Source: Escherichia coli (GTDB lineage: Bacteria; Pseudomonadota; Gammaproteobacteria; Enterobacterales; Enterobacteriaceae). From it: a DNA stretch of 64,000 nucleotides. Position numbers and translations under genes: made by a program. This document shows positions 1-61,534 of the stretch, piece after piece (position 1 is the first letter of the stretch; each line of letters starts with the position of its first letter). A model generated the notes under the pieces. The model saw only the letters and a list, made by a program, of their open reading frames with translations. It had not been told where the DNA came from and made no database searches. The DNA is taken from the NCBI RefSeq assembly GCF_016026235.1, contig NZ_CP065613.1; one strand, written 5' to 3'.

Positions 1-176
1 CCATGGGTAAATCATTTTGAACGGCTATGGCAGGCGCTTCATGAAACGATAACGCGCAATCATCAGTGCCGGAGATGTGGCAGTTGCTGAAAAAAGTCCA
101 ACACTTTATGGAAACTGCCAGTCCGTTCCCCGGCGGGAGACATGGTCTGGCAAAAGTGTAGCGGTATTAGGCGCAG

Positions 177-865
177 CTATTTAGCGACATATTCCTTTGT
201 TTTATCGTCAGTTCGTAAACGTCCGATAGCGATGATGTGAAGTGCACTATTTGCAGCACGCTCCCCACCCCGATTAAGTCGGTAACGGTTCATTTTTTTA
301 GAAGATACGGTAACCGAGTTGACACCACACAGCACCGCAAAACCTGATTCTATTCTTAGCCGTTGGGGATTATCTCCGGCAGTGATGAGCAACTGCGAAG
401 CGCTTTCGTATCCAACAGCATTACGTTTAATCAGTTCAGGTGCCAGTTCATCGACAATTGCCGCAATCATGACATCAAGGTCGGCGATTTCATCATGTAA
501 CTCGAAATAGCGTCAGGCAAGTGATTTCAATGCAATGCGATAAACGTTGGTAACATTACGATATTCACTGGCACTAGGCTTCCAGGATCCCGGAGTCCTG
601 ATAAGTTGCATACGTGTCATATTTCTGAGTGGTTCGCGTAATTCATCCGGTGCAGAGATAATATAGGAATGGATAATCTGGAGAGCGACTCTGCAGGCTG
701 ATATTGCGGTTTTGCGGCAAGTTTTTGGCATCCGCTTCTACGCCAAATACCTGAAGTAGGAATGGATGCGTTAGCAGCATACATCCGGATCTGCGCGGGG
801 AATAGCCGGAAACGGCTATCCCTACCACAATAGCTAACTTTGTAATAGTGCCCTTTTAGGCTCAT
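177..865 (-). pseudogene. IS110-family transposase remnant (C-terminal portion only, frameshifted)
   Basis: ORF 177..470 (97 aa) carries the IS110-family C-terminal signature VGYESASQLLITAGDNPQRLRIESGFAVLCGV..SSGK..RYRLNRGGERAANSALH; the upstream frames (513..731, 617..865) are broken, and the N-terminal DEDD domain is missing because the LacI-type gene starts at 862. Confidence 0.45.
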
Positions 866-1893
866 GTACTCTGACGTAATTCTATCTGGTAGTTGAATTG
901 CACGATACGCGACTCTTCTGATTCATCATGATTATTATTCAATAGCCCAATCAGTAACTTACCCGTCTCTATCCCCATTTTTTTGTAGTCAATACGGATG
1001 GATGTCAAGGTTGGGTGTGTTTGATCGCAATTGTCTGAACCATCAAGACAAGCTACAGCGATATTTTCAGGAATTTTTAACAAACGCCGCTGGCACTCAA
1101 ACATGATACCCAGCGCAATCTCTTCGTGGCTGCAAATCACAGCATCCAGCTCTGGTTGTCGCAGTAATATCTCGTTTAATGCGTAACGCCCCAATTGCAG
1201 ACTTGCGGCATCCGGCATGGTGATAACAAGATCAGAGTTCTGGTAATGGCTCAACATTGCTTTATGCCAGCCGTTCAGTTGCTGACGTTGCAGGCGGTTG
1301 TCCATATGCGCACCGATAAATCCGATATTCTTATAACCCTGTTCCAGCAGATGTTCGGTCAGTTTATGTGATGCTTCAAAAAATGCTGTTTCGATGGTAA
1401 TTTGAGCCGGACTGAAAGGGGAACCGACAACGTTAATGGTAGGTATATTTGTTTTCTCGAGTATCTGGTGAGTTTTATCAGCCAACTGAGAACCAAAAAT
1501 AACTAACGCCGCCGGGTTGCCTTGAAGAAGCGTCATCAGAATTTCAGCTTCTTTGAGCTGATTATACTCATGACACCCAAGCAGTAGCTGGAATTCATTT
1601 TTATTAAGCACCTGCTGCAACGACTGCATAAAGCGGGAGCTGGCTTTATCTGTCAGGGAAGGAACCAGTACGGCGACTGTATCACTGTGACCAGATGCAA
1701 GGGCGCCAGCAGTTCTGTTGGGAATATAACCCAACTCTTCTACGGCCTGTTCTATCTTTTCCCTCAGCTTGTCAGATACCTGTTCCGGTGTTCTCAGCGC
1801 ACGGGAAACGGTCATGGTTCCGACACCTGCAAAGTTAGCGACCTCCTGCAGCGTCACCCGTCCGGTACCACGGCGCTTACGTGTTTTTTCCAT
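862..1893 (-). CDS. LacI-family transcriptional regulator (343 aa)
   Basis: N-terminal HTH (RVTLQEVANFAGVGTMTVSRAL) followed by a periplasmic-binding-protein-like sugar-binding fold; ATG at 1891-1893; divergent from the PTS genes. Confidence 0.8.
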   Translation of the reverse strand: MEKTRKRRGTGRVTLQEVANFAGVGTMTVSRALRTPEQVSDKLREKIEQAVEELGYIPNRTAGALASGHSDTVAVLVPSLTDKASSRFMQSLQQVLNKNEFQLLLGCHEYNQLKEAEILMTLLQGNPAALVIFGSQLADKTHQILEKTNIPTINVVGSPFSPAQITIETAFFEASHKLTEHLLEQGYKNIGFIGAHMDNRLQRQQLNGWHKAMLSHYQNSDLVITMPDAASLQLGRYALNEILLRQPELDAVICSHEEIALGIMFECQRRLLKIPENIAVACLDGSDNCDQTHPTLTSIRIDYKKMGIETGKLLIGLLNNNHDESEESRIVQFNYQIELRQST

Positions 1894-2038
1894 TTCGACT
1901 CCATGGATAATTACAACCAGCTGTTTTCATTACTGTTATTTCACCATTACTCTTTCCAGTTTTTGCCCACGGTAGCAAATATCCTGTTGCATTGTATATG
2001 CAGGAACCGAATATAGCCAAAGCATGGCGGCAGAGAAA

Positions 2039-2086
2039 TGATAGCGCTATCACAAAGATTGGTAGCGTTATCAGATAGCGCTATCA
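2039..2086. promoter_or_regulatory. Three LacI-type operator-like palindromes with central CG
   Basis: TGATAGCGCTATCA (2039-2052, perfect 14-bp palindrome), TGGTAGCGTTATCA (2059-2072) and AGATAGCGCTATCA (2073-2086), in the divergent regulator/PTS intergenic region. Confidence 0.5.
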
Positions 2087-2163
2087 AATGCGACAATCAT
2101 CACATTAATTAATGCGTAAAATATCTACTCTCCTGTTAATTATCATCGGGAGTTATCAGTAGC

Positions 2164-2607
2164 ATGTTAAAAAATCTATTAAATACAGAGGTCGTTCAGG
2201 TCGTGGAACAGGCCAAAGACTGGCGGGAAGCCGTGGCGATTTCATGCCGGCCGTTGATTGAAAACGGTTCTATCGAACCGCGTTATGTTGATGCGATCTA
2301 TCGCTCGCACGACACTATCGGTCCGTACTATGTGGTTGGCCCTGGTATTGCGATGCCTCATGCGCGCCCGGAAGAGGGAGCTAACAAGCTGTCATTAGCA
2401 CTGACCCTGATCCCTTCAGGTGTGAATTTTGATGCCGATGAAAACGATCCAGTGAAATTACTGATTGTGCTGGCTGCAACCGACAGTACCAGCCACATTG
2501 AAGCGATTTCTCAACTCGCCAAGTTATTCGATAACGAAAAAGACATACAGGCCATTTTGATGGCCAAAACGACGCAGGACATTTTGTCTGTTATTGCGCG
2601 CTATTAA
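2164..2607 (+). CDS. PTS enzyme IIA component, ascorbate (UlaC/SgcA-like) family
   Basis: 147 aa with PTS_EIIA_2-type motifs (GPYYVVGPGIAMPHARPEEG); GGGAG Shine-Dalgarno upstream of the ATG. Confidence 0.8.
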   Translation: MLKNLLNTEVVQVVEQAKDWREAVAISCRPLIENGSIEPRYVDAIYRSHDTIGPYYVVGPGIAMPHARPEEGANKLSLALTLIPSGVNFDADENDPVKLLIVLAATDSTSHIEAISQLAKLFDNEKDIQAILMAKTTQDILSVIARY

Positions 2608-2622
2608 TCCAGAGGAACATTT

Positions 2623-2910
2623 ATGAAAATTACAGTGGTTTGCGGTAACGGCTTAGGCACCAGCCTGATGATGGAAATGAGCATTAAAAGCATTTTGAAG
2701 GATTTGTCCGTCAGCGCTGATGTTGATCACGTCGACCTGGGCTCCGCGAAAGGGACGCCGAGTGATATCTATGTCGGCACCAAAGACATTGCCGAGCAGT
2801 TAGTCGCGCAGTCTGTCGCAGGCAAAATCGTCGCACTGGAAAATATGATTGATAAGAAAGCCATGAGAGAACGTTTATCCGTGGTATTAAACGAATTAGG
2901 CGCACTGTAA
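2623..2910 (+). CDS. PTS enzyme IIB component (UlaB-like)
   Basis: 95 aa; N-terminal KITVVCGNGLGTS cysteine phosphorylation-site motif typical of small IIB proteins. Confidence 0.8.
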   Translation: MKITVVCGNGLGTSLMMEMSIKSILKDLSVSADVDHVDLGSAKGTPSDIYVGTKDIAEQLVAQSVAGKIVALENMIDKKAMRERLSVVLNELGAL

Positions 2911-2922
2911 GCTGGGGGCGAT

Positions 2923-4179
2923 ATGGATTTCTTTCGTTTTTTGATGAGCGATGTACTTTCCGAACCCGCAGTGCTGGTCGGTTTAATCGCCCTGATTGGC
3001 CTGATTGCACAGAAAAAACCGGTAACCGAATGCATTAAAGGTACCGTCAAGACCATTATGGGGTTTGTGATTTTAGGCGCAGGGGCGGGTTTAGTTGTGT
3101 CGTCACTGGGTGACTTCGCAAACATTTTCCAGCATGCCTTTGGTATTCAGGGTGTAGTGCCGAACAATGAAGCCATTGTTTCCGTAGCGCAGAAAAGCTT
3201 CGGGAAAGAAATGGCGATGATTATGTTCTTTGCGATGGTTATCAACATTATGATTGCCCGTTTCACACCGTGGAAATTTATCTTCCTGACCGGTCATCAC
3301 ACGTTGTTTATGTCGATGATGGTAGCGGTAATTCTGGCAACAGCAGGCATGACCGGCATTACGCTTATAGCCGTTGGCTCTTTGGTTGTTGGCGTGGCAA
3401 TGGTCTTTTTCCCGGCTATTGCGCATCCGTACATGAAGAAAGTGACCGGTTCTGATGACGTTGCCATCGGCCACTTCTCAACATTATCTTATGTATTGGC
3501 CGGTTTCATCGGCAGCAAGTTTGGTAATAAAGAGCACTCGACTGAAGACATGAATGTGCCGAAAAGTCTGCTGTTCTTGCGCGACACGCCGGTTGCTATC
3601 TCTTTTACCATGAGCATAATTTTCCTGGTGACGTGCCTGTTTGCGGGTGCAGATGCGGTGAAAGAGCTTAGCGGTGGTAAAAACTGGTTCATGTTCTCTA
3701 TCATGCAATCCATTACCTTCGCAGCTGGCGTGTACATCATTCTGCAGGGTGTGCGCATGGTGATTGCGGAGATTGTCCCGGCATTCAAAGGTATTTCAGA
3801 CAAGCTGGTTCCGAATGCCAGACCTGCTCTCGATTGCCCGGTCGTCTTCCCTTACGCACCTAACGCTGTACTGGTTGGTTTCCTGAGTAGCTTTGCTGCA
3901 GGTTTAATCGGTATGTTCACGTTGTATCTGCTGAACATGATCGTGATTATTCCTGGTGTGGTGCCGCACTTCTTCGTAGGTGCAGCTGCAGGGGTATTCG
4001 GTAATGCAACGGGTGGACGTCGTGGTGCGATTTTGGGTGCCTTCGCTCAAGGCTTGCTTATTACCTTCCTGCCAGTATTCTTATTGCCGGTGCTGGGTGA
4101 TATTGGTTTTGCTAACACCACCTTCAGTGATGCTGACTTTGGCGCACTGGGTATTTTGTTAGGGATTATCGTTCGCTAA
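2923..4179 (+). CDS. PTS enzyme IIC permease, ascorbate (UlaA/SgaT) family
   Basis: 418 aa polytopic membrane protein with UlaA-like segments (IKGTVKTIMGF, VAEIVPAFKGISDKLVPNA). Confidence 0.85.
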   Translation: MDFFRFLMSDVLSEPAVLVGLIALIGLIAQKKPVTECIKGTVKTIMGFVILGAGAGLVVSSLGDFANIFQHAFGIQGVVPNNEAIVSVAQKSFGKEMAMIMFFAMVINIMIARFTPWKFIFLTGHHTLFMSMMVAVILATAGMTGITLIAVGSLVVGVAMVFFPAIAHPYMKKVTGSDDVAIGHFSTLSYVLAGFIGSKFGNKEHSTEDMNVPKSLLFLRDTPVAISFTMSIIFLVTCLFAGADAVKELSGGKNWFMFSIMQSITFAAGVYIILQGVRMVIAEIVPAFKGISDKLVPNARPALDCPVVFPYAPNAVLVGFLSSFAAGLIGMFTLYLLNMIVIIPGVVPHFFVGAAAGVFGNATGGRRGAILGAFAQGLLITFLPVFLLPVLGDIGFANTTFSDADFGALGILLGIIVR

Positions 4180-4192
4180 TATTTTGATGACA

Positions 4193-4245
4193 TTAATATC
4201 CTCCAGGATTTCAGGAACGTGGAGGATATTAATTCCTCTTATTTT
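4193..4245 (+). terminator. Intrinsic terminator after the PTS operon
   Basis: Perfect 13-bp inverted repeat TTAATATCCTCCA...TGGAGGATATTAA (4193-4232) followed by a T-rich tract. Confidence 0.6.
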
Positions 4246-4418
4246 CTCCATTTTTCTTTCTTCCAGTCAGGACTGCATCCGATTAATCGTAAGGCAGTAT
4301 GACTTTCTGTGAGACAGATGCTGGCCAACGTGGGATATTTAACGCGGGTTAACATCGTTGTCAGAGCCGCATGGGTGAGCTGTTGCTACACCCCGGTATT
4401 TCCACCACGGAGGCCAGC

Positions 4419-5546
4419 ATGAACAACAATAACACATTGTACGTCGGGTTAGATGTTCACAAAGAATCGATTACTGTCGCTTATGCTATCAATTCAGAAC
4501 CTGTTGAACTGATGGGTAAAATTGGCACATCACCTACTGATATTCAGAATCTTTGTAAACGTCTCAGGTCAAAGTCATCGCAGGTCAGTATCGTTTATGA
4601 AGCGGGGCCCTGTGGTTATGGACTTTATCGTCGGCTGGTGAAATCCGGTTTTGACTGCATGGTCTGCGCCCCCTCACTTATCCCGAAAAAACCGGGGGAG
4701 CGGGTTAAAACCGATCGCCGTGATGCCATCAGACTTGTGCGTTCACTGCGTGCAGGAGATCTTTCTGCTGTCTACGTACCCGGCATTGAAGATGAGGCAT
4801 TCCGGGATTTGGCCCGGGCATGGGCATCTGCCCGCGATGATTTACGGCATGCAAGGCAACGTCTGAAATCGTTTCTTCTGGTTCATGGGGTCCATTATGT
4901 CGGGCGAGCAGATTGGGGCCCTGCACACCGACGCTGGCTCAGCAAATACTCATTCGAAAGTCCCTGGCGACAATTAGCTTTTGACGAACACCGTCGTACA
5001 ATAGAAGACCGGCAGGCACAATGTGAACGGCTGGAATCCGCCCTGAAGGAGGCCGTTACCGAATGGAGGCTGTATCCGGTAGTAGAGGCGCTGCAAGCCA
5101 TGCGAGGGATTCAGTTTATTACTGCGGTTGGATTAATTTCTGAACTGGGTGATCTGACCCGTTTTGAACATCCACGACAACTGATGTCATGGTTTGGTAT
5201 CACGCCATCAGAATATTCATCGGGTGGAAGCAGACATCAGGGCAGCATTACCAAAGCCGGAAACAGCTATGCCAGAAAGCTATTGGTCGAGGCAGCGTGG
5301 AGTTACCGTCATCCGGCACGCATCAGTCCGGCAATACAAAAAAGGCAGGAAAATTTACCCCGCCCCGTCATTGACAGAGCATGGGATGCTCAACTCAGGC
5401 TTTGTAAGAGGTATCGAAAACTTCAGGCCAAAGGAAAGAATGTCAATATTACAATTGTTGCTGTTGCACGTGAGCTGGCGGGTTTTATCTGGGATATGGG
5501 CCGAATAGCAATATCTGTCGCACAACAACCACAATGTCACAAATAA
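4419..5546 (+). CDS. IS110-family transposase/recombinase (375 aa from the SD-preceded ATG; the ORF track starts at 4371)
   Basis: N-terminal LYVGLDVHKESI RuvC-like DEDD domain and C-terminal Transposase_20-type region (GITPSEYSSGGSRHQGSITKAGNSYARKLL); GGAGG 7 nt upstream of the ATG at 4419. Confidence 0.8.
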   Translation: MNNNNTLYVGLDVHKESITVAYAINSEPVELMGKIGTSPTDIQNLCKRLRSKSSQVSIVYEAGPCGYGLYRRLVKSGFDCMVCAPSLIPKKPGERVKTDRRDAIRLVRSLRAGDLSAVYVPGIEDEAFRDLARAWASARDDLRHARQRLKSFLLVHGVHYVGRADWGPAHRRWLSKYSFESPWRQLAFDEHRRTIEDRQAQCERLESALKEAVTEWRLYPVVEALQAMRGIQFITAVGLISELGDLTRFEHPRQLMSWFGITPSEYSSGGSRHQGSITKAGNSYARKLLVEAAWSYRHPARISPAIQKRQENLPRPVIDRAWDAQLRLCKRYRKLQAKGKNVNITIVAVARELAGFIWDMGRIAISVAQQPQCHK

Positions 5547-6394: not shown

Positions 6395-6417
6395 GAGCAA
6401 CGGCGGGGAGTGATCCC

Positions 6418-7711
6418 CTGAGGGATCCCCAGAAAATTTAGTAAACCATTATCATATTGGTATACCGTTGCTGTAGAACTTTCAGCCCTGCGTCAAGTGA
6501 CAGTGTGTTTAGTATGAGTGGAGAATGTCGAATCACATTCTCCGCCAGTTTTAATAACGAGATGACTCGCCTGTGCTTCACTGTATTTGCCTGATATTTA
6601 TGATGTATCCCTTTGTTTTCCAGGCTGAAACCGCTTAACCACATAATGATACTGGCTAATGTTGCGATCAGACTCAATACCGTGACCCGCCCGGATGAAT
6701 GACTGGCACCAAACCGTAGTCCAAATCCCCAGCGAGGATTTTTTTCATCCCTGAAATTTTGCTCAATTTGCATTCTACGGCTGTATAATTTCATTACCTG
6801 TTTTGGCGAGAACTCAGTACTGTTTGTGAAAATAAACCATGGTGATTTCCCGGCAGTACGAGCTTTAGCCGTCACCGATGGTCTGGTTGCTCTTTCCTTC
6901 GAGCGTTTAAATCTACGACCTTTAGGCTTACTTTTATAAAGATAAAAATGCCCTTCATGTTGTGCATTTTTATCTCGACCCAGCAGGCCTTCACCTAAAT
7001 AAATTGCTGTCGTTGATGCTTTTGTGCCTGAGTCCGACACCTTTTCCCAGCCATTACCAACATTGTAATAATGATTGCCCAGTACCCGGCAAATATAGGT
7101 CCAGCCACGGGAGCGGAGCTGTTGGAACCATCGCCCCTGAAAACCGGCATCTGTAATAACAATGACATCAGTCCCGGGGGAAAAGCACTCAGCAAGCGAT
7201 TCCAGAAAACGCTCATGTACATCTGCATTCGCTGTCTGTGATGATGGAACGACACAACTCATCAACGGTAAAGAACGCCCGTCACATGCCAGGCTTGCCC
7301 GCAAAAGCTGAAAACGAGAGGCATGATAAGCACTCCAGTCAATGAGTATCACAACACGAGACATTCCCCGCGTAATCTTTTGGGTAATTCGCTGAAAAAT
7401 GGTGGAAACCTCATTTTGCAAATGTCGATTCCCCAACAGTCGATCCACCCGCTTTATTTTGTTTTTAACTGATGCCGTACCGGTTAAATGACGCCCGATA
7501 CTGGTAAGTGTGAGGGAAGCGCCATTTATTACAGCATTAGTTGCGTCAATCAGTGATTTTTGACGGTAAAGATGCAAAGGGGCCAGTATATTGTTAAGGA
7601 AATTTTGGCATAATGAACGTGCAGGCATAGTGGTGATCTCCTTGAAATTGTTAGCACAATCAATTAGATCACATCTCACTATGCCTGTCTTGTTTTCTGG
7701 GGATTCCTCAG
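6418..7711 (-). mobile_element. IS10-like (IS4-family) insertion sequence, intact copy, about 1.29 kb
   Basis: Terminal inverted repeats CTGAGGGATCCCCAGAAAA (left) and CTGAGGAATCCCCAGAAAA (right, reverse complement), resembling IS10 ends; flanked by direct repeat GAGTGATCC(C) at 6408-6417 and 7712-7721. Confidence 0.8.
6438..7628 (-). CDS. IS4-family (IS10-group) transposase, 396 aa
   Basis: Shares IS10 transposase motifs (KIKRVDRLLGNRHL, DWSA, DAGF, YSRRMQIEQNFRDEK, QANTVKHRRV); true start is MPARSL at 7628, the ORF-track start at 7727 lies outside the element. Confidence 0.85.
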   Translation of the reverse strand: MPARSLCQNFLNNILAPLHLYRQKSLIDATNAVINGASLTLTSIGRHLTGTASVKNKIKRVDRLLGNRHLQNEVSTIFQRITQKITRGMSRVVILIDWSAYHASRFQLLRASLACDGRSLPLMSCVVPSSQTANADVHERFLESLAECFSPGTDVIVITDAGFQGRWFQQLRSRGWTYICRVLGNHYYNVGNGWEKVSDSGTKASTTAIYLGEGLLGRDKNAQHEGHFYLYKSKPKGRRFKRSKERATRPSVTAKARTAGKSPWFIFTNSTEFSPKQVMKLYSRRMQIEQNFRDEKNPRWGFGLRFGASHSSGRVTVLSLIATLASIIMWLSGFSLENKGIHHKYQANTVKHRRVISLLKLAENVIRHSPLILNTLSLDAGLKVLQQRYTNMIMVY

Positions 7712-7760
7712 GAGTGATCCCCGCCACTTTACAGGTGCTCGCATATCTTCAACGCACCCT

Positions 7761-42934: not shown

Positions 42935-43186
42935 TGGAGCACCTCAAAAACACCATCATACACTAAATCAGTAAGTTGGCAGCATCACCCTCGTTATTAA
43001 AACTGGCGGAGAATGTGATTCGACATTCTCCACTCATACTAAACACACTGTCACTTGACGCAGGGCTGAAAGTTCTACAGCAACGGTATACCAATATGAT
43101 AATGGTTTACTAAATTTTCTGGGGATCCCTCAGGAGCAGTCCCCCACTCCGGCTTAACACGACAATCGCCTTTCAGCGAAACACAA

Positions 43187-56807: not shown

Positions 56808-57839
56808 ATGTCTGCATTTACCCCGGCAAGTGAAGTCTTGCTGCGTCACAGTGATGATTTCGAACAAAGCCGTATTCTGTTTGCCGGAGACTTACAGGAT
56901 GACCTGCCCGCGCGTTTAGATACCGCGGCCAGCCGTGCTCATACCCAGCAATTCCACCACTGGCAGGTATTAAGCCGCCAGATGGGGGATAACGCCCGTT
57001 TCAGTCTGGTCGCCACGGCGGATGACGTCGCAGATTGCGATACGCTGATTTACTACTGGCCGAAGAACAAACCGGAAGCCCAGTTCCAGTTGATGAATTT
57101 ACTTTCTCTGCTGCCAGTGGGGACAGATATTTTTGTCGTTGGCGAGAACCGCAGCGGCGTGCGCAGCGCCGAGCAGATGCTGGCAGATTATGCGCCGTTG
57201 AATAAAGTCGACAGCGCTCGTCGCTGTGGCCTCTATTTTGGTCGTCTGGAAAAACAGCCGGTATTTGATGCGGATAAATTCTGGGGCGAATACAGCGTCG
57301 ATGGCCTGACGGTCAAAACGCTGCCTGGCGTGTTTAGCCGCGACGGTCTGGATGTCGGTAGCCAGTTGCTGCTCTCGACGTTAACCCCGCACACGAAAGG
57401 TAAAGTGCTGGATGTCGGCTGTGGCGCGGGTGTGCTTTCAGTTGCCTTTGCGCGCCATTCGCCGAAAATTCGTCTCACCTTGTGCGATGTCTCTGCGCCA
57501 GCGGTAGAAGCCAGCCGCGCAACACTTGCGGCCAACGGTGTTGAAGGTGAAGTCTTTGCCAGCAACGTCTTTTCCGAGGTGAAAGGTCGTTTTGATATGA
57601 TCATCTCCAACCCGCCGTTCCACGATGGGATGCAAACCAGCCTGGATGCGGCGCAAACGCTGATTCGCGGCGCGGTGCGTCATCTTAATAGTGGCGGCGA
57701 GCTGCGAATTGTAGCGAACGCCTTCCTGCCTTATCCGGACGTGCTGGATGAGACATTTGGCTTCCATGAAGTGATTGCGCAAACCGGGCGTTTCAAGGTA
57801 TATCACGCCATTATGACCCGCCAGGCGAAAAAAGGTTAA
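56808..57839 (+). CDS. rsmC: 16S rRNA (guanine1207-N2)-methyltransferase RsmC
   Basis: 343 aa with SAM-binding [11 protein letters not shown] and NPPFH motifs. Confidence 0.95.
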
Positions 57840-57849
57840 GTATCCCGCC

Positions 57850-57960
57850 GCAAGCCTTGCCGGATGCGGCGTAAACGCCTTATCCGACCTACAAAACCTG
57901 CATGTTAGCCCTTCGTAGGCCAGATAAGACGCGCCAGCGTCGCATCTGGCATCTGCCCCC
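57850..57960. repeat. REP/BIME cluster
   Basis: TGCCGGATGCGGCGTAAACGCCTTATCCGACCTACA and GTAGGCCAGATAAGACGCGCCAGCGTCGCATC. Confidence 0.7.
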
Positions 57961-58037
57961 GCATGCCTACCAAACCTGCACGCTAGTTTCCTGATGGACA
58001 TTTTTCCAGCAATTACACCTCCGGCGATAATTAACTA

Positions 58038-58065
58038 TTGACGAAAAGCTGAAAACCACTAGAAT
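58038..58065 (+). promoter_or_regulatory. Promoter of the tRNA-Leu operon
   Basis: TTGACG, 16-bp spacer, TAGAAT, about 40 bp upstream of the first tRNA. Confidence 0.6.
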
Positions 58066-58106: not shown

Positions 58107-58193
58107 GCGAAGGTGGCGGAATTGGTAGACGCGCTAGCTTCAGGTGTTAGTGTCCTTACGGACGTGGGGGTTCAAGTCCCCCCCCTCGCACCA
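58107..58193 (+). tRNA. tRNA-Leu (anticodon CAG)
   Basis: 87-nt GCGAAGGTGGCGGAATTGGTAGACGCGCTAGCTTCAGGTG...TCGCACCA with CAG anticodon loop and encoded CCA. Confidence 0.93.
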
Positions 58194-58227
58194 AACGAGG
58201 CGATATCAAAAAAAGTAAGATGACTGT

Positions 58228-58314
58228 GCGAAGGTGGCGGAATTGGTAGACGCGCTAGCTTCAGGTGTTAGTGTCCTTACGGACGTGGGGGTTCAAGTCC
58301 CCCCCCTCGCACCA
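58228..58314 (+). tRNA. tRNA-Leu (anticodon CAG), second tandem copy
   Basis: Identical 87-nt sequence, 34-bp spacer after the first copy. Confidence 0.93.
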
Positions 58315-58352
58315 ATTATCTTTACTTCCTTTCTTGTTTCTTCCTTGATTTT

Positions 58353-58589
58353 TCATCCCTGATTCAAATTCATTATCATCAGCATGATGGCAGCAATAAG
58401 CGCTAGGCACGATGGTAGCAAAACGTAATGCCGTAACTGTTTGTGATACAGCATCACCGGCGTCAATACTAATCCCATCAGAATGACAATCCGCCACTGA
58501 TCCGGCGATAAATCCGCATACATCAGCCCTGCAATCAGCAATCCCGGCAGCAACACTCCCCAGCCACTGCCCAGCGTACGTTGCAACAT
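58353..58589 (-). CDS. yjjZ: Small membrane protein YjjZ
   Basis: MLQRTLGSGWGVLLPGLLIAGLMYADLSPDQWRIV...; 78 aa; the ORF-track start at 58700 is an upstream extension. Confidence 0.8.
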   Translation of the reverse strand: MLQRTLGSGWGVLLPGLLIAGLMYADLSPDQWRIVILMGLVLTPVMLYHKQLRHYVLLPSCLALIAAIMLMIMNLNQG

Positions 58590-59555: not shown

Positions 59556-60233
59556 TTAATAGGGATGCAACACATTACTTGTTTCGCAATGCCGCATACA
59601 TAACAGAATATCTGCGGCCTCCAACAACCCTGCATCAGAACTGACGCCCAGTTTCGACATCACATTAAATTTATGTGCACGGATCGTTTTGATATTGCGT
59701 TTAAGCTGCTCGGCAATTTGTGTCATTGAGTAGCCACGCGACATAAAGCGCAATATTTCTCTCTCCGTCGGGCTTAACGTCCGGCTTTGGTTAATGTACC
59801 ACTGATTGTTCAGTCGGTCGGTCGCCTGACGTACACCATTTAATGACAAAAAGAGTTCCTGATGAAAAATCTCCAGCGTTGACGCTTTACTTAATACACC
59901 GTCCAGCGGTGATGGCGACAATGAACCAATCAGCCGAGCTTCAATATCATCATCCGCAATAACTAAACGCTGGGTACGCGGAAACTTAATCGCCAGTTCA
60001 GTCAGGCAAGATAATCCCTCTCTGCGCTCACTTCTCATGGCAGAAAAAGAAAAAATGACCGCCGCAAACGAGATCCGCGACATGGCATCCTGAAATGACT
60101 CCTGACTGGTATAGGTATGGAGCTTGTAAGGGTTACCCGCAAACTTTCTGAATAAACTCTCAATACCGATACTGCTCATGACGCATTTTTCTATGAGTGC
60201 GACATTTCTCTTCTTAATTCGGCTGTGTTCCAT
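59556..60233 (-). CDS. bglJ: LuxR-family regulator BglJ
   Basis: 225 aa with C-terminal LuxR HTH ([36 protein letters not shown]). Confidence 0.9.
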
Positions 60234-60916
60234 TCTGCGGCATCTCCATAAACAGAAGGCAAGTTAAGTTCTCTTGCACCCTGCGCGCTATTTATCCATG
60301 CATACATTTCAGCGTTGCTGTGAATTGCCAGTCGACGCATCGCACTGTTTTTTTGGGCGCTGATAGTTTTATTACTTTTCTTAAGCAACGAAGCTATCTG
60401 GTTGATGCCCCATCCTTTACCTAATAGCCGCAGTACCTTGCGCTCTGAAAGAGTGAGAATGACGGAGCGATAGCTAAAATCATGAGTTTCAGTCATTGCC
60501 GGAGAGGTCAGCATGGCGCTGATACGCTCTGCGTGCGTATTGCCGGAACGTACGGTCTTGACCAGATTCTCAATGGGTTCAACATCAGACAATAACGTCG
60601 CCGTAGGGCACATGAGCAATTCTACTGCCTGGGAATACCAGGAGCGTGACACCATGAAAACCCAGTGAATTTCCCGATATTGTGAGATTAAAGAATAATA
60701 ATGTTCACAAACAGAACGTGGATCTTCACTTTCACCGGCTAAATCAGCAATGACTAATCCGGAACGACGTAATTGTAATAAGGTAAGGTCCTCCGCAGAG
60801 GCGCTGGATATTATTTCATATTCAGGGAAGTGAGTCCTCATGACCTCTTTTAACCCTGCTTGCATAACAGGTATTTTACTGATAAAAATTCCATTTTTGC
60901 AGCATCCTGGCAACAT
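60191..60916 (-). CDS. yjjQ: LuxR-family regulator YjjQ
   Basis: 241 aa with C-terminal LuxR HTH ([34 protein letters not shown]); overlaps the bglJ start. Confidence 0.9.
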
Positions 60917-61534
60917 ATTTCCTCCACATCCACTGTCTAAAAATCATGATGGTTTATTCAGGATATTCATTCCTTAAATGTTTCCAGCAAATTAATAGAT
61001 TAAGCGAATAAATTATCCTTAGCATTCACTTTCATATCAGCATACTCCTGCTGCACAACAACTCCACTGCGTGTGTCAGAAGGTTAGCATCAAATGATAA
61101 CCTGGTGAAATAGCCTGGAGACATTTAAAATATCTACATTAAGTTGTTAGGAATACTTAATGAAAAACAGAAATCACATTCATTTAATTTATAATTAAAT
61201 GATATCCCTTCCCGCAGAATGAAAAATCACACAACCAATATTTATTCAATGAAATCTGATGGTTTTAACTTGTTAACATTAAAAAACGTGCCCGGTTATC
61301 TATTATCCTGATTCGTAAAGGCCAAACAATAAATTCATTATAGTGATAATATTCATGTGATAGTTTGTTTGCGGCGAGAGATAATTCGCTTTTTATCACC
61401 GAGCTTGTCCCGATAACCAGGATTAATCAGCGCAATTTTGATCTTAACCTACCGCAAAACAACCGTGCTTCATGATACAAATGGATTCTCATTATCTGAA
61501 CAATACGCAGCACGTCTATGACAAAGGGCGAGTT

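Follow-up and report, generated by a model that had tools for sequence, protein, structure and literature searches.

CUG is the most used codon in Escherichia coli, and tRNA-Leu(CAG) is its most abundant tRNA. The closest described counterpart of the locus considered here is the leuQ-leuP-leuV operon of E. coli K-12 (tRNA-Leu1, anticodon CAG; NC_000913.3 4606079-4606401), which occupies the same position, with rsmC upstream and yjjZ and fhuF downstream. In K-12, the operon is expressed as a single precursor transcript, from which RNase P separates the tRNAs independently of RNase E; termination is inferred to be Rho-dependent, with no Rho-independent terminator structure recognisable downstream, and the 3' trailer is trimmed by PNPase and RNase II (PMC2190699). 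[quoted passage not shown]

A second point of comparison is provided by the assays of 101-bp repeats in tetA (Lovett and Cox laboratories; PMC7145654). As in the array described here, these repeats are direct, shorter than 200 bp, and closely spaced, and deletion removes one period without a scar; the assays use a reporter, whereas the present locus is a natural chromosomal tRNA array. Deletion between close direct repeats of <200 bp in E. coli is mostly RecA-independent, by template switching or slippage; the RecA-independent events are ascribed to switching of templates within post-replication gaps, with slippage as a partial contributor (PMC7145654).

The window (the whole 64-kb stretch of DNA that was analysed) contains exactly two tRNA genes according to ARAGORN, both tRNA-Leu(CAG) on the + strand, and the Rfam model RF00005 matches each at 48.5 bits (gathering score 29). 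Both are 87-nt class II tRNA-Leu genes with the anticodon CAG and the same sequence as K-12 leuQ and leuV. Copy 1 (58107..58193, +), identified by ARAGORN, Rfam, and alignments to K-12, FDAARGOS_943, and the nearest relatives, is a leuQ/leuP hybrid. It is followed by a 34-nt spacer (58194..58227, +) that alignments equate with the K-12 leuP-leuV spacer (AACGAGGCGATATCAAAAAAAGTAAGATGACTGT), and then by copy 2 (58228..58314, +), the leuV equivalent (ARAGORN, Rfam, and the K-12 alignment). Over 89 nt the two copies match at every base (100%), and their starts are 121 nt apart, which leaves the spacer of 34 nt. The preliminary description, of two identical 87-nt copies with a 34-bp spacer behind a promoter, is thus borne out by ARAGORN, Rfam, self-comparison, and the promoter scan. 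It had also stated that K-12 has three copies here and had named a two-copy K-12 locus as grounds for withdrawing the claim; in NC_000913.3 (MG1655), the interval from rsmC to yjjZ is annotated with leuQ, leuP, and leuV, the first spacer being 28 nt and the second 34 nt. The three-gene layout with spacers of ∼28 and ∼31-34 nt is absent from the window, which has two genes and only the 34-nt spacer. A hidden or degenerate third copy was considered and rejected: no third tRNA-Leu gene, partial copy, or remnant of the leuQ-leuP spacer was found anywhere in the 64 kb.

The upstream neighbor of the array is rsmC (16S rRNA m2G1207 methyltransferase; 56808..57839, +), with a 343-aa translation free of internal stops, and every E. 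coli locus fetched, like K-12, has it annotated in this position. REP/BIME-like intergenic repeats (57845..57990) lie in the interval from rsmC to the promoter, and these include GCCGGATGCGGCGTAAACGCCTTATCCGACCTAC and its inverted partner, which we take to be REP elements. The window has 267 nt between rsmC and the first tRNA gene; in the fetched E. coli loci this interval varies from about 190 to 308 nt. The promoter scan identified a sigma-70-like promoter (58038..58065, +) with a −35 hexamer TTGACG, a 16-nt spacer, and a −10 hexamer TAGAAT (10 of 12 consensus matches), and the −10 hexamer is followed by a GC-rich discriminator (GCGCCTCC). From the −35 hexamer to the first tRNA the window and K-12 are base-for-base the same, while two SNPs distinguish them upstream of this hexamer. 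By comparison with the K-12 operon (PMC2190699), this element would be expected to function as the leuQPV promoter.

Downstream of the array, the + strand sequence is also the same as in K-12. A scan of this strand finds no intrinsic terminator, and no hairpin, downstream of the array; instead, a pyrimidine-rich, G-poor stretch (58315..58352, +) is predicted, from the terminator scan and by analogy with K-12, to be a probable region of Rho-dependent termination. The next gene is the convergent yjjZ (DUF1435; 58353..58589, −), recognized from its translation and its annotation in relatives. The array therefore has the location of leuQPV, immediately behind rsmC in the same orientation and convergent with yjjZ. 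It shares with the K-12 operon the promoter, leader, 34-nt leuP-leuV spacer, and downstream region, and differs in having two genes rather than three, without the 28-nt leuQ-leuP spacer and the leuP variant. The locus in the window is a contracted allele of the leuQPV operon, and not a different operon.

Alignment of the window with K-12 is collinear except for one gap of exactly 115 bp. This lost segment consists of the 3' part of leuQ, the 28-nt leuQ-leuP spacer (AAAACCACGTTGATATTGCTCGCACTGG), which is missing from the window while the 34-nt leuP-leuV spacer is kept, and the 5' part of leuP. The genes of the array can be told apart by a single marker base at gene position 48, in the variable arm, where leuP has T whereas leuQ and leuV have C, both in K-12 and in the nearest relatives of the window. 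Copy 1 has C at 58154, i.e., leuQ sequence at least through base 48, and is then followed by the leuP-leuV spacer. In the three closest relatives, what follows position 48 is alike for leuQ and leuP: 39 nt plus AA. The deletion junction therefore falls within a 41-nt shared tract (58155..58195, +), which is the same in leuQ plus two downstream bases as in leuP plus two downstream bases. The deletion starts and ends within direct repeats, and it has removed precisely one period and left no scar.

The preliminary description had proposed the loss of one 121-bp repeat unit by homologous recombination. The alignments uphold the loss of one repeat period, but its size is 115 bp (the 87-nt gene plus the 28-nt leuQ-leuP spacer), 121 bp being the period of the unit that was retained, and the proposed route is one possibility of several. 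The resulting sequence is the same for RecA-dependent exchange and for the RecA-independent routes, so "homologous recombination" is right in kind only.

We therefore read the locus as a leuQPV operon that has recently contracted from three genes to two, with a probability of roughly 0.8. The ancestor would have carried the canonical arrangement of leuQ, 28-nt spacer, leuP, 34-nt spacer, and leuV. Its 87-bp direct repeats, 28 to 34 bp apart, would have become misaligned, either through template switching or slippage during replication or through unequal exchange between sister chromosomes. One 115-bp period would then have been lost, with the junction in 58155-58195, and the leuP variant (T at position 48) would have gone with it. 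Left behind would be an intact operon with the same promoter, two identical tRNA genes, a leuP-leuV-type spacer, and the same downstream region. The molecular route was likely repeat-mediated template switching or unequal exchange.

The age of the loss was approached through the closest relatives. A look-up of the exact RsmC protein gave GCA_031665325.1 and GCA_901482675.2, and the nearest RefSeq E. coli genome is FDAARGOS_943. All three have three copies, with C in leuQ, T in leuP, and C in leuV at position 48, and the spacers of GCA_031665325.1 and GCA_901482675.2 are canonical. GCA_031665325.1 is identical to the window over 4,299 nt upstream of the array and differs at one site (58404) in 2,410 nt downstream; FDAARGOS_943 has 19 mismatches in 37.9 kb (window 4289-42221). 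A second isolate of the same clone with the two-copy allele was not found among the relatives and genomes searched. Given these near-identical three-copy relatives, the two-copy state appears to be private to the window sequence and recent, unless it is an assembly error.

The comparison with FDAARGOS_943 also reveals differences in insertion sequences. The window contains a full ISEc60 (6417-7712), an IS110-family element with its transposase (4371-5546), and an IS1 flanked by ISEc60 fragments (42222-42999). The last of these lies in a region (41892-43144) where, relative to FDAARGOS_943, an IS1 within an ISEc60 copy replaces ∼820 bp of the ISEc60 interior; in FDAARGOS_943 the ISEc60 between lplA and deoD is intact. 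The first 4.3 kb of the window encode a LacI-family regulator and PTS EIIA and EIIC components (GAT family), abutting the IS110-family transposase, whereas the FDAARGOS_943 counterpart of positions 1-5546 is nhaA-nhaR, which indicates an IS-associated rearrangement between the two genomes. Additionally, yjjQ (60191-60916, 241 aa) is intact in the window and is cut by IS1 in FDAARGOS_943 (region 60191-61461).

To place the allele in the population, allele-specific BLAST queries were run against 5,426 complete E. coli genomes. The canonical allele (leuQ-leuP spacer, leuP, and leuP-leuV spacer; three or more copies) is present in 4,963 genomes (91.5%). The two-copy allele of the window (promoter, leu, leuP-leuV spacer, leu) occurs in 21, and the reciprocal two-copy allele, in which the leuQ-leuP spacer is kept, in 14; a single-copy allele occurs in 425. 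These four classes sum to 5,423 of the 5,426 genomes, with two-copy alleles in 35 (0.65%) and the exact allele of the window in 0.39%. Two-copy counts of 18 and 2, obtained by subtraction from junction-only queries, were dropped in favor of the direct counts of 21 and 14, as the 72-78-nt megablast junction queries evidently miss genomes with SNPs in the spacers. In an evenly drawn sample of 59 genomes, a flank-only query gave three copies in 55 and one in 4, in agreement with the allele counts.

Copy number at this array ranges from one to four. At least 10 genomes of the canonical class have four copies through a duplicated 121-bp unit, and this was verified in UTAK-13, where the spacers are 28, 34, and 34 nt. 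The single-copy class is comprised mostly of O157:H7, and also includes the laboratory strain ME8067; the one-copy allele is common mainly through heavy sampling of the O157:H7 clone. The single-copy alleles (e.g., O157:H7 ATCC 35150 and ME8067) and the four-copy allele of UTAK-13 affect the same array as the window, by the same repeat-mediated contraction or expansion.

Several observations on individual records accompany these counts. O157:H7 genomes (e.g., NZ_CP038372.1) have one copy at the locus and three genome-wide matches to the tRNA-Leu query, compared with two such matches in the single-copy ME8067 (NZ_CP028703.1), and O157:H7 may thus carry an extra tRNA-Leu(CAG)-like gene elsewhere. 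Unlike other O157:H7 genomes, with their single copy, NZ_CP033605.1 (TR01, labelled O157:H7) has the leuQ-leuP spacer between two copies, and its RsmC protein allele differs from that of O157:H7 ATCC 35150. Records of "strain 167" from Houston include some with two copies and some with three. Among plasmid-labelled E. coli records, two places have the leuQ-leuP junction and two have the leuP-leuV junction, indicating that a plasmid-classed record contains a copy of the array.

Eleven genomes with the two-copy allele of the window were fetched, and all are annotated with two tRNA-Leu genes. They represent several flank haplotypes and six RsmC protein alleles, and the marker base of copy 1 is C in six and T in five, so crossovers have fallen on either side of this base. 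The several flank haplotypes, together with the crossovers on both sides of the marker base, point to a two-copy deletion that has arisen many times in E. coli. The two-copy alleles in the RefSeq genomes LR-33 (NZ_AP027523.1), O111:H2 12A, and Z1323CEC0010 are the same as that of the window over a 292-nt stretch that starts at the −35 hexamer and ends 15 nt beyond the second tRNA. These genomes differ from the window in flank haplotype (LR-33 is 98.6% identical over 4.8 kb), and therefore represent independent events rather than members of the lineage of the window. The variation is of an ordinary and already known kind, in which repeats bring about the gain or loss of copies in a tandem tRNA array; it is rare and recurrent.

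The only serious rival to a recent contraction, and itself an unlikely one, is an artefact of assembly or polishing, by which a true three-copy array of the strain would have had one 115-bp unit collapsed in the consensus. Assemblers are known to have difficulty with tandem repeats, and three copies are present in each of the three closest relatives found, leaving the two-copy state private to the window sequence. Furthermore, homopolymer-type errors are seen at this locus in public assemblies: leuP of FDAARGOS_943 has a run of nine C residues and is annotated at 88 nt (6617-6704 of the fetched locus), and both tRNA-Leu genes of 2015C-4136CT1 are 86 nt. These two length changes could also be real inactivating indels. 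However, the array is <450 bp and both spacers are unique, so that it is resolved by single reads of modest length. The contig also continues across repeated IS elements, which fits long-read or finished data better than a short-read graph. Twenty-one independent complete genomes have this same allele, cleanly formed and annotated, and the window holds no orphan leuQ-leuP spacer.

A far less probable source of the allele is import by recombination from another E. coli lineage. Two-copy alleles do circulate in the species at about 0.65%, and a substitution that is absent from the closest relatives, a C>T (+ strand) at 58404 that is synonymous at Leu62 of yjjZ, lies only 90 nt downstream of the array. 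Against this, the flanks otherwise match those of the three-copy sister GCA_031665325.1, with the upstream side identical and this site the sole downstream difference. A 69-mer spanning the T at 58404 has an exact match in only 4 of the 5,426 complete genomes, none of which is among the 21 with the two-copy allele. The array and promoter are themselves too conserved to reveal an import tract. Import was therefore rejected on the basis of the matching flanks and the occurrence of this rare T outside the two-copy genomes.

We examined the ancestral state with a scan for the tandem junction in one genome per bacterial species, which yielded 83 loci from the Enterobacteriaceae and related families. 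In 75 of these, rsmC is directly upstream on the same strand, and 65 of the 75 rsmC-linked loci, including those of E. albertii and Salmonella, have three copies with spacers of ∼28 and ∼31-34 nt. This majority among the orthologous loci indicates that three copies are the ancestral state. The converse proposal, that two copies are older and that K-12 and most E. coli gained a third, draws on the bare copy-number difference and nothing more, and we give it next to no credence and reject it, as the same spacer architecture behind rsmC is found in those 65 loci and the sister genomes of the window itself have three copies. Only two tandem copies are present in a Pluralibacter MAG, Izhakiella australiensis, Enterobacter pulveris DSM 19144 (as given in the record title), and Klebsiella pneumoniae ATCC 13883; in these four species representatives the array is well inside the fetched locus, so contraction also occurs, or is fixed, outside E. 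coli.

Returning to the contraction itself, its consequences would follow from what was retained. Because the promoter, leader, retained spacer, and downstream region are the same as in K-12, the operon should work as usual: it would be transcribed and processed as in K-12, with separation by RNase P and a Rho-dependent end, and would yield two tRNAs per transcript rather than three. Each operon transcript would be expected to supply one third less tRNA. At the level of the genome, the strain would have 3 rather than 4 tRNA-Leu(CAG) genes, provided that leuT, which lies outside the window, is intact. In deletion experiments, lost tRNA genes were not compensated by the remaining copies; tRNA gene redundancy was beneficial in rich media and carried a fitness cost in poor media, such that gene loss has a growth cost in rich media, and in poor media may have no effect or a beneficial one (PMC9981150). 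The output of CUG-reading tRNA in the strain is probably somewhat reduced.

As a single case, the contraction has little significance beyond correct annotation of the locus, and the population picture may be more useful. One speculative extension, which we consider doubtful, is that leuQPV acts as a small dosage dial, in which a high mutational rate generates the one to four copies seen and selection for fast growth keeps most lineages at three; contraction in an IS-laden, maybe host-restricted lineage would then reflect relaxed or reversed selection on the supply of tRNA-Leu(CAG), and not a neutral accident. More broadly, the canonical array is maintained in most Enterobacteriaceae and, within E. 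coli, in 91.5% of the complete genomes, despite its mutationally fragile repeats, which is consistent with selection on copy number.
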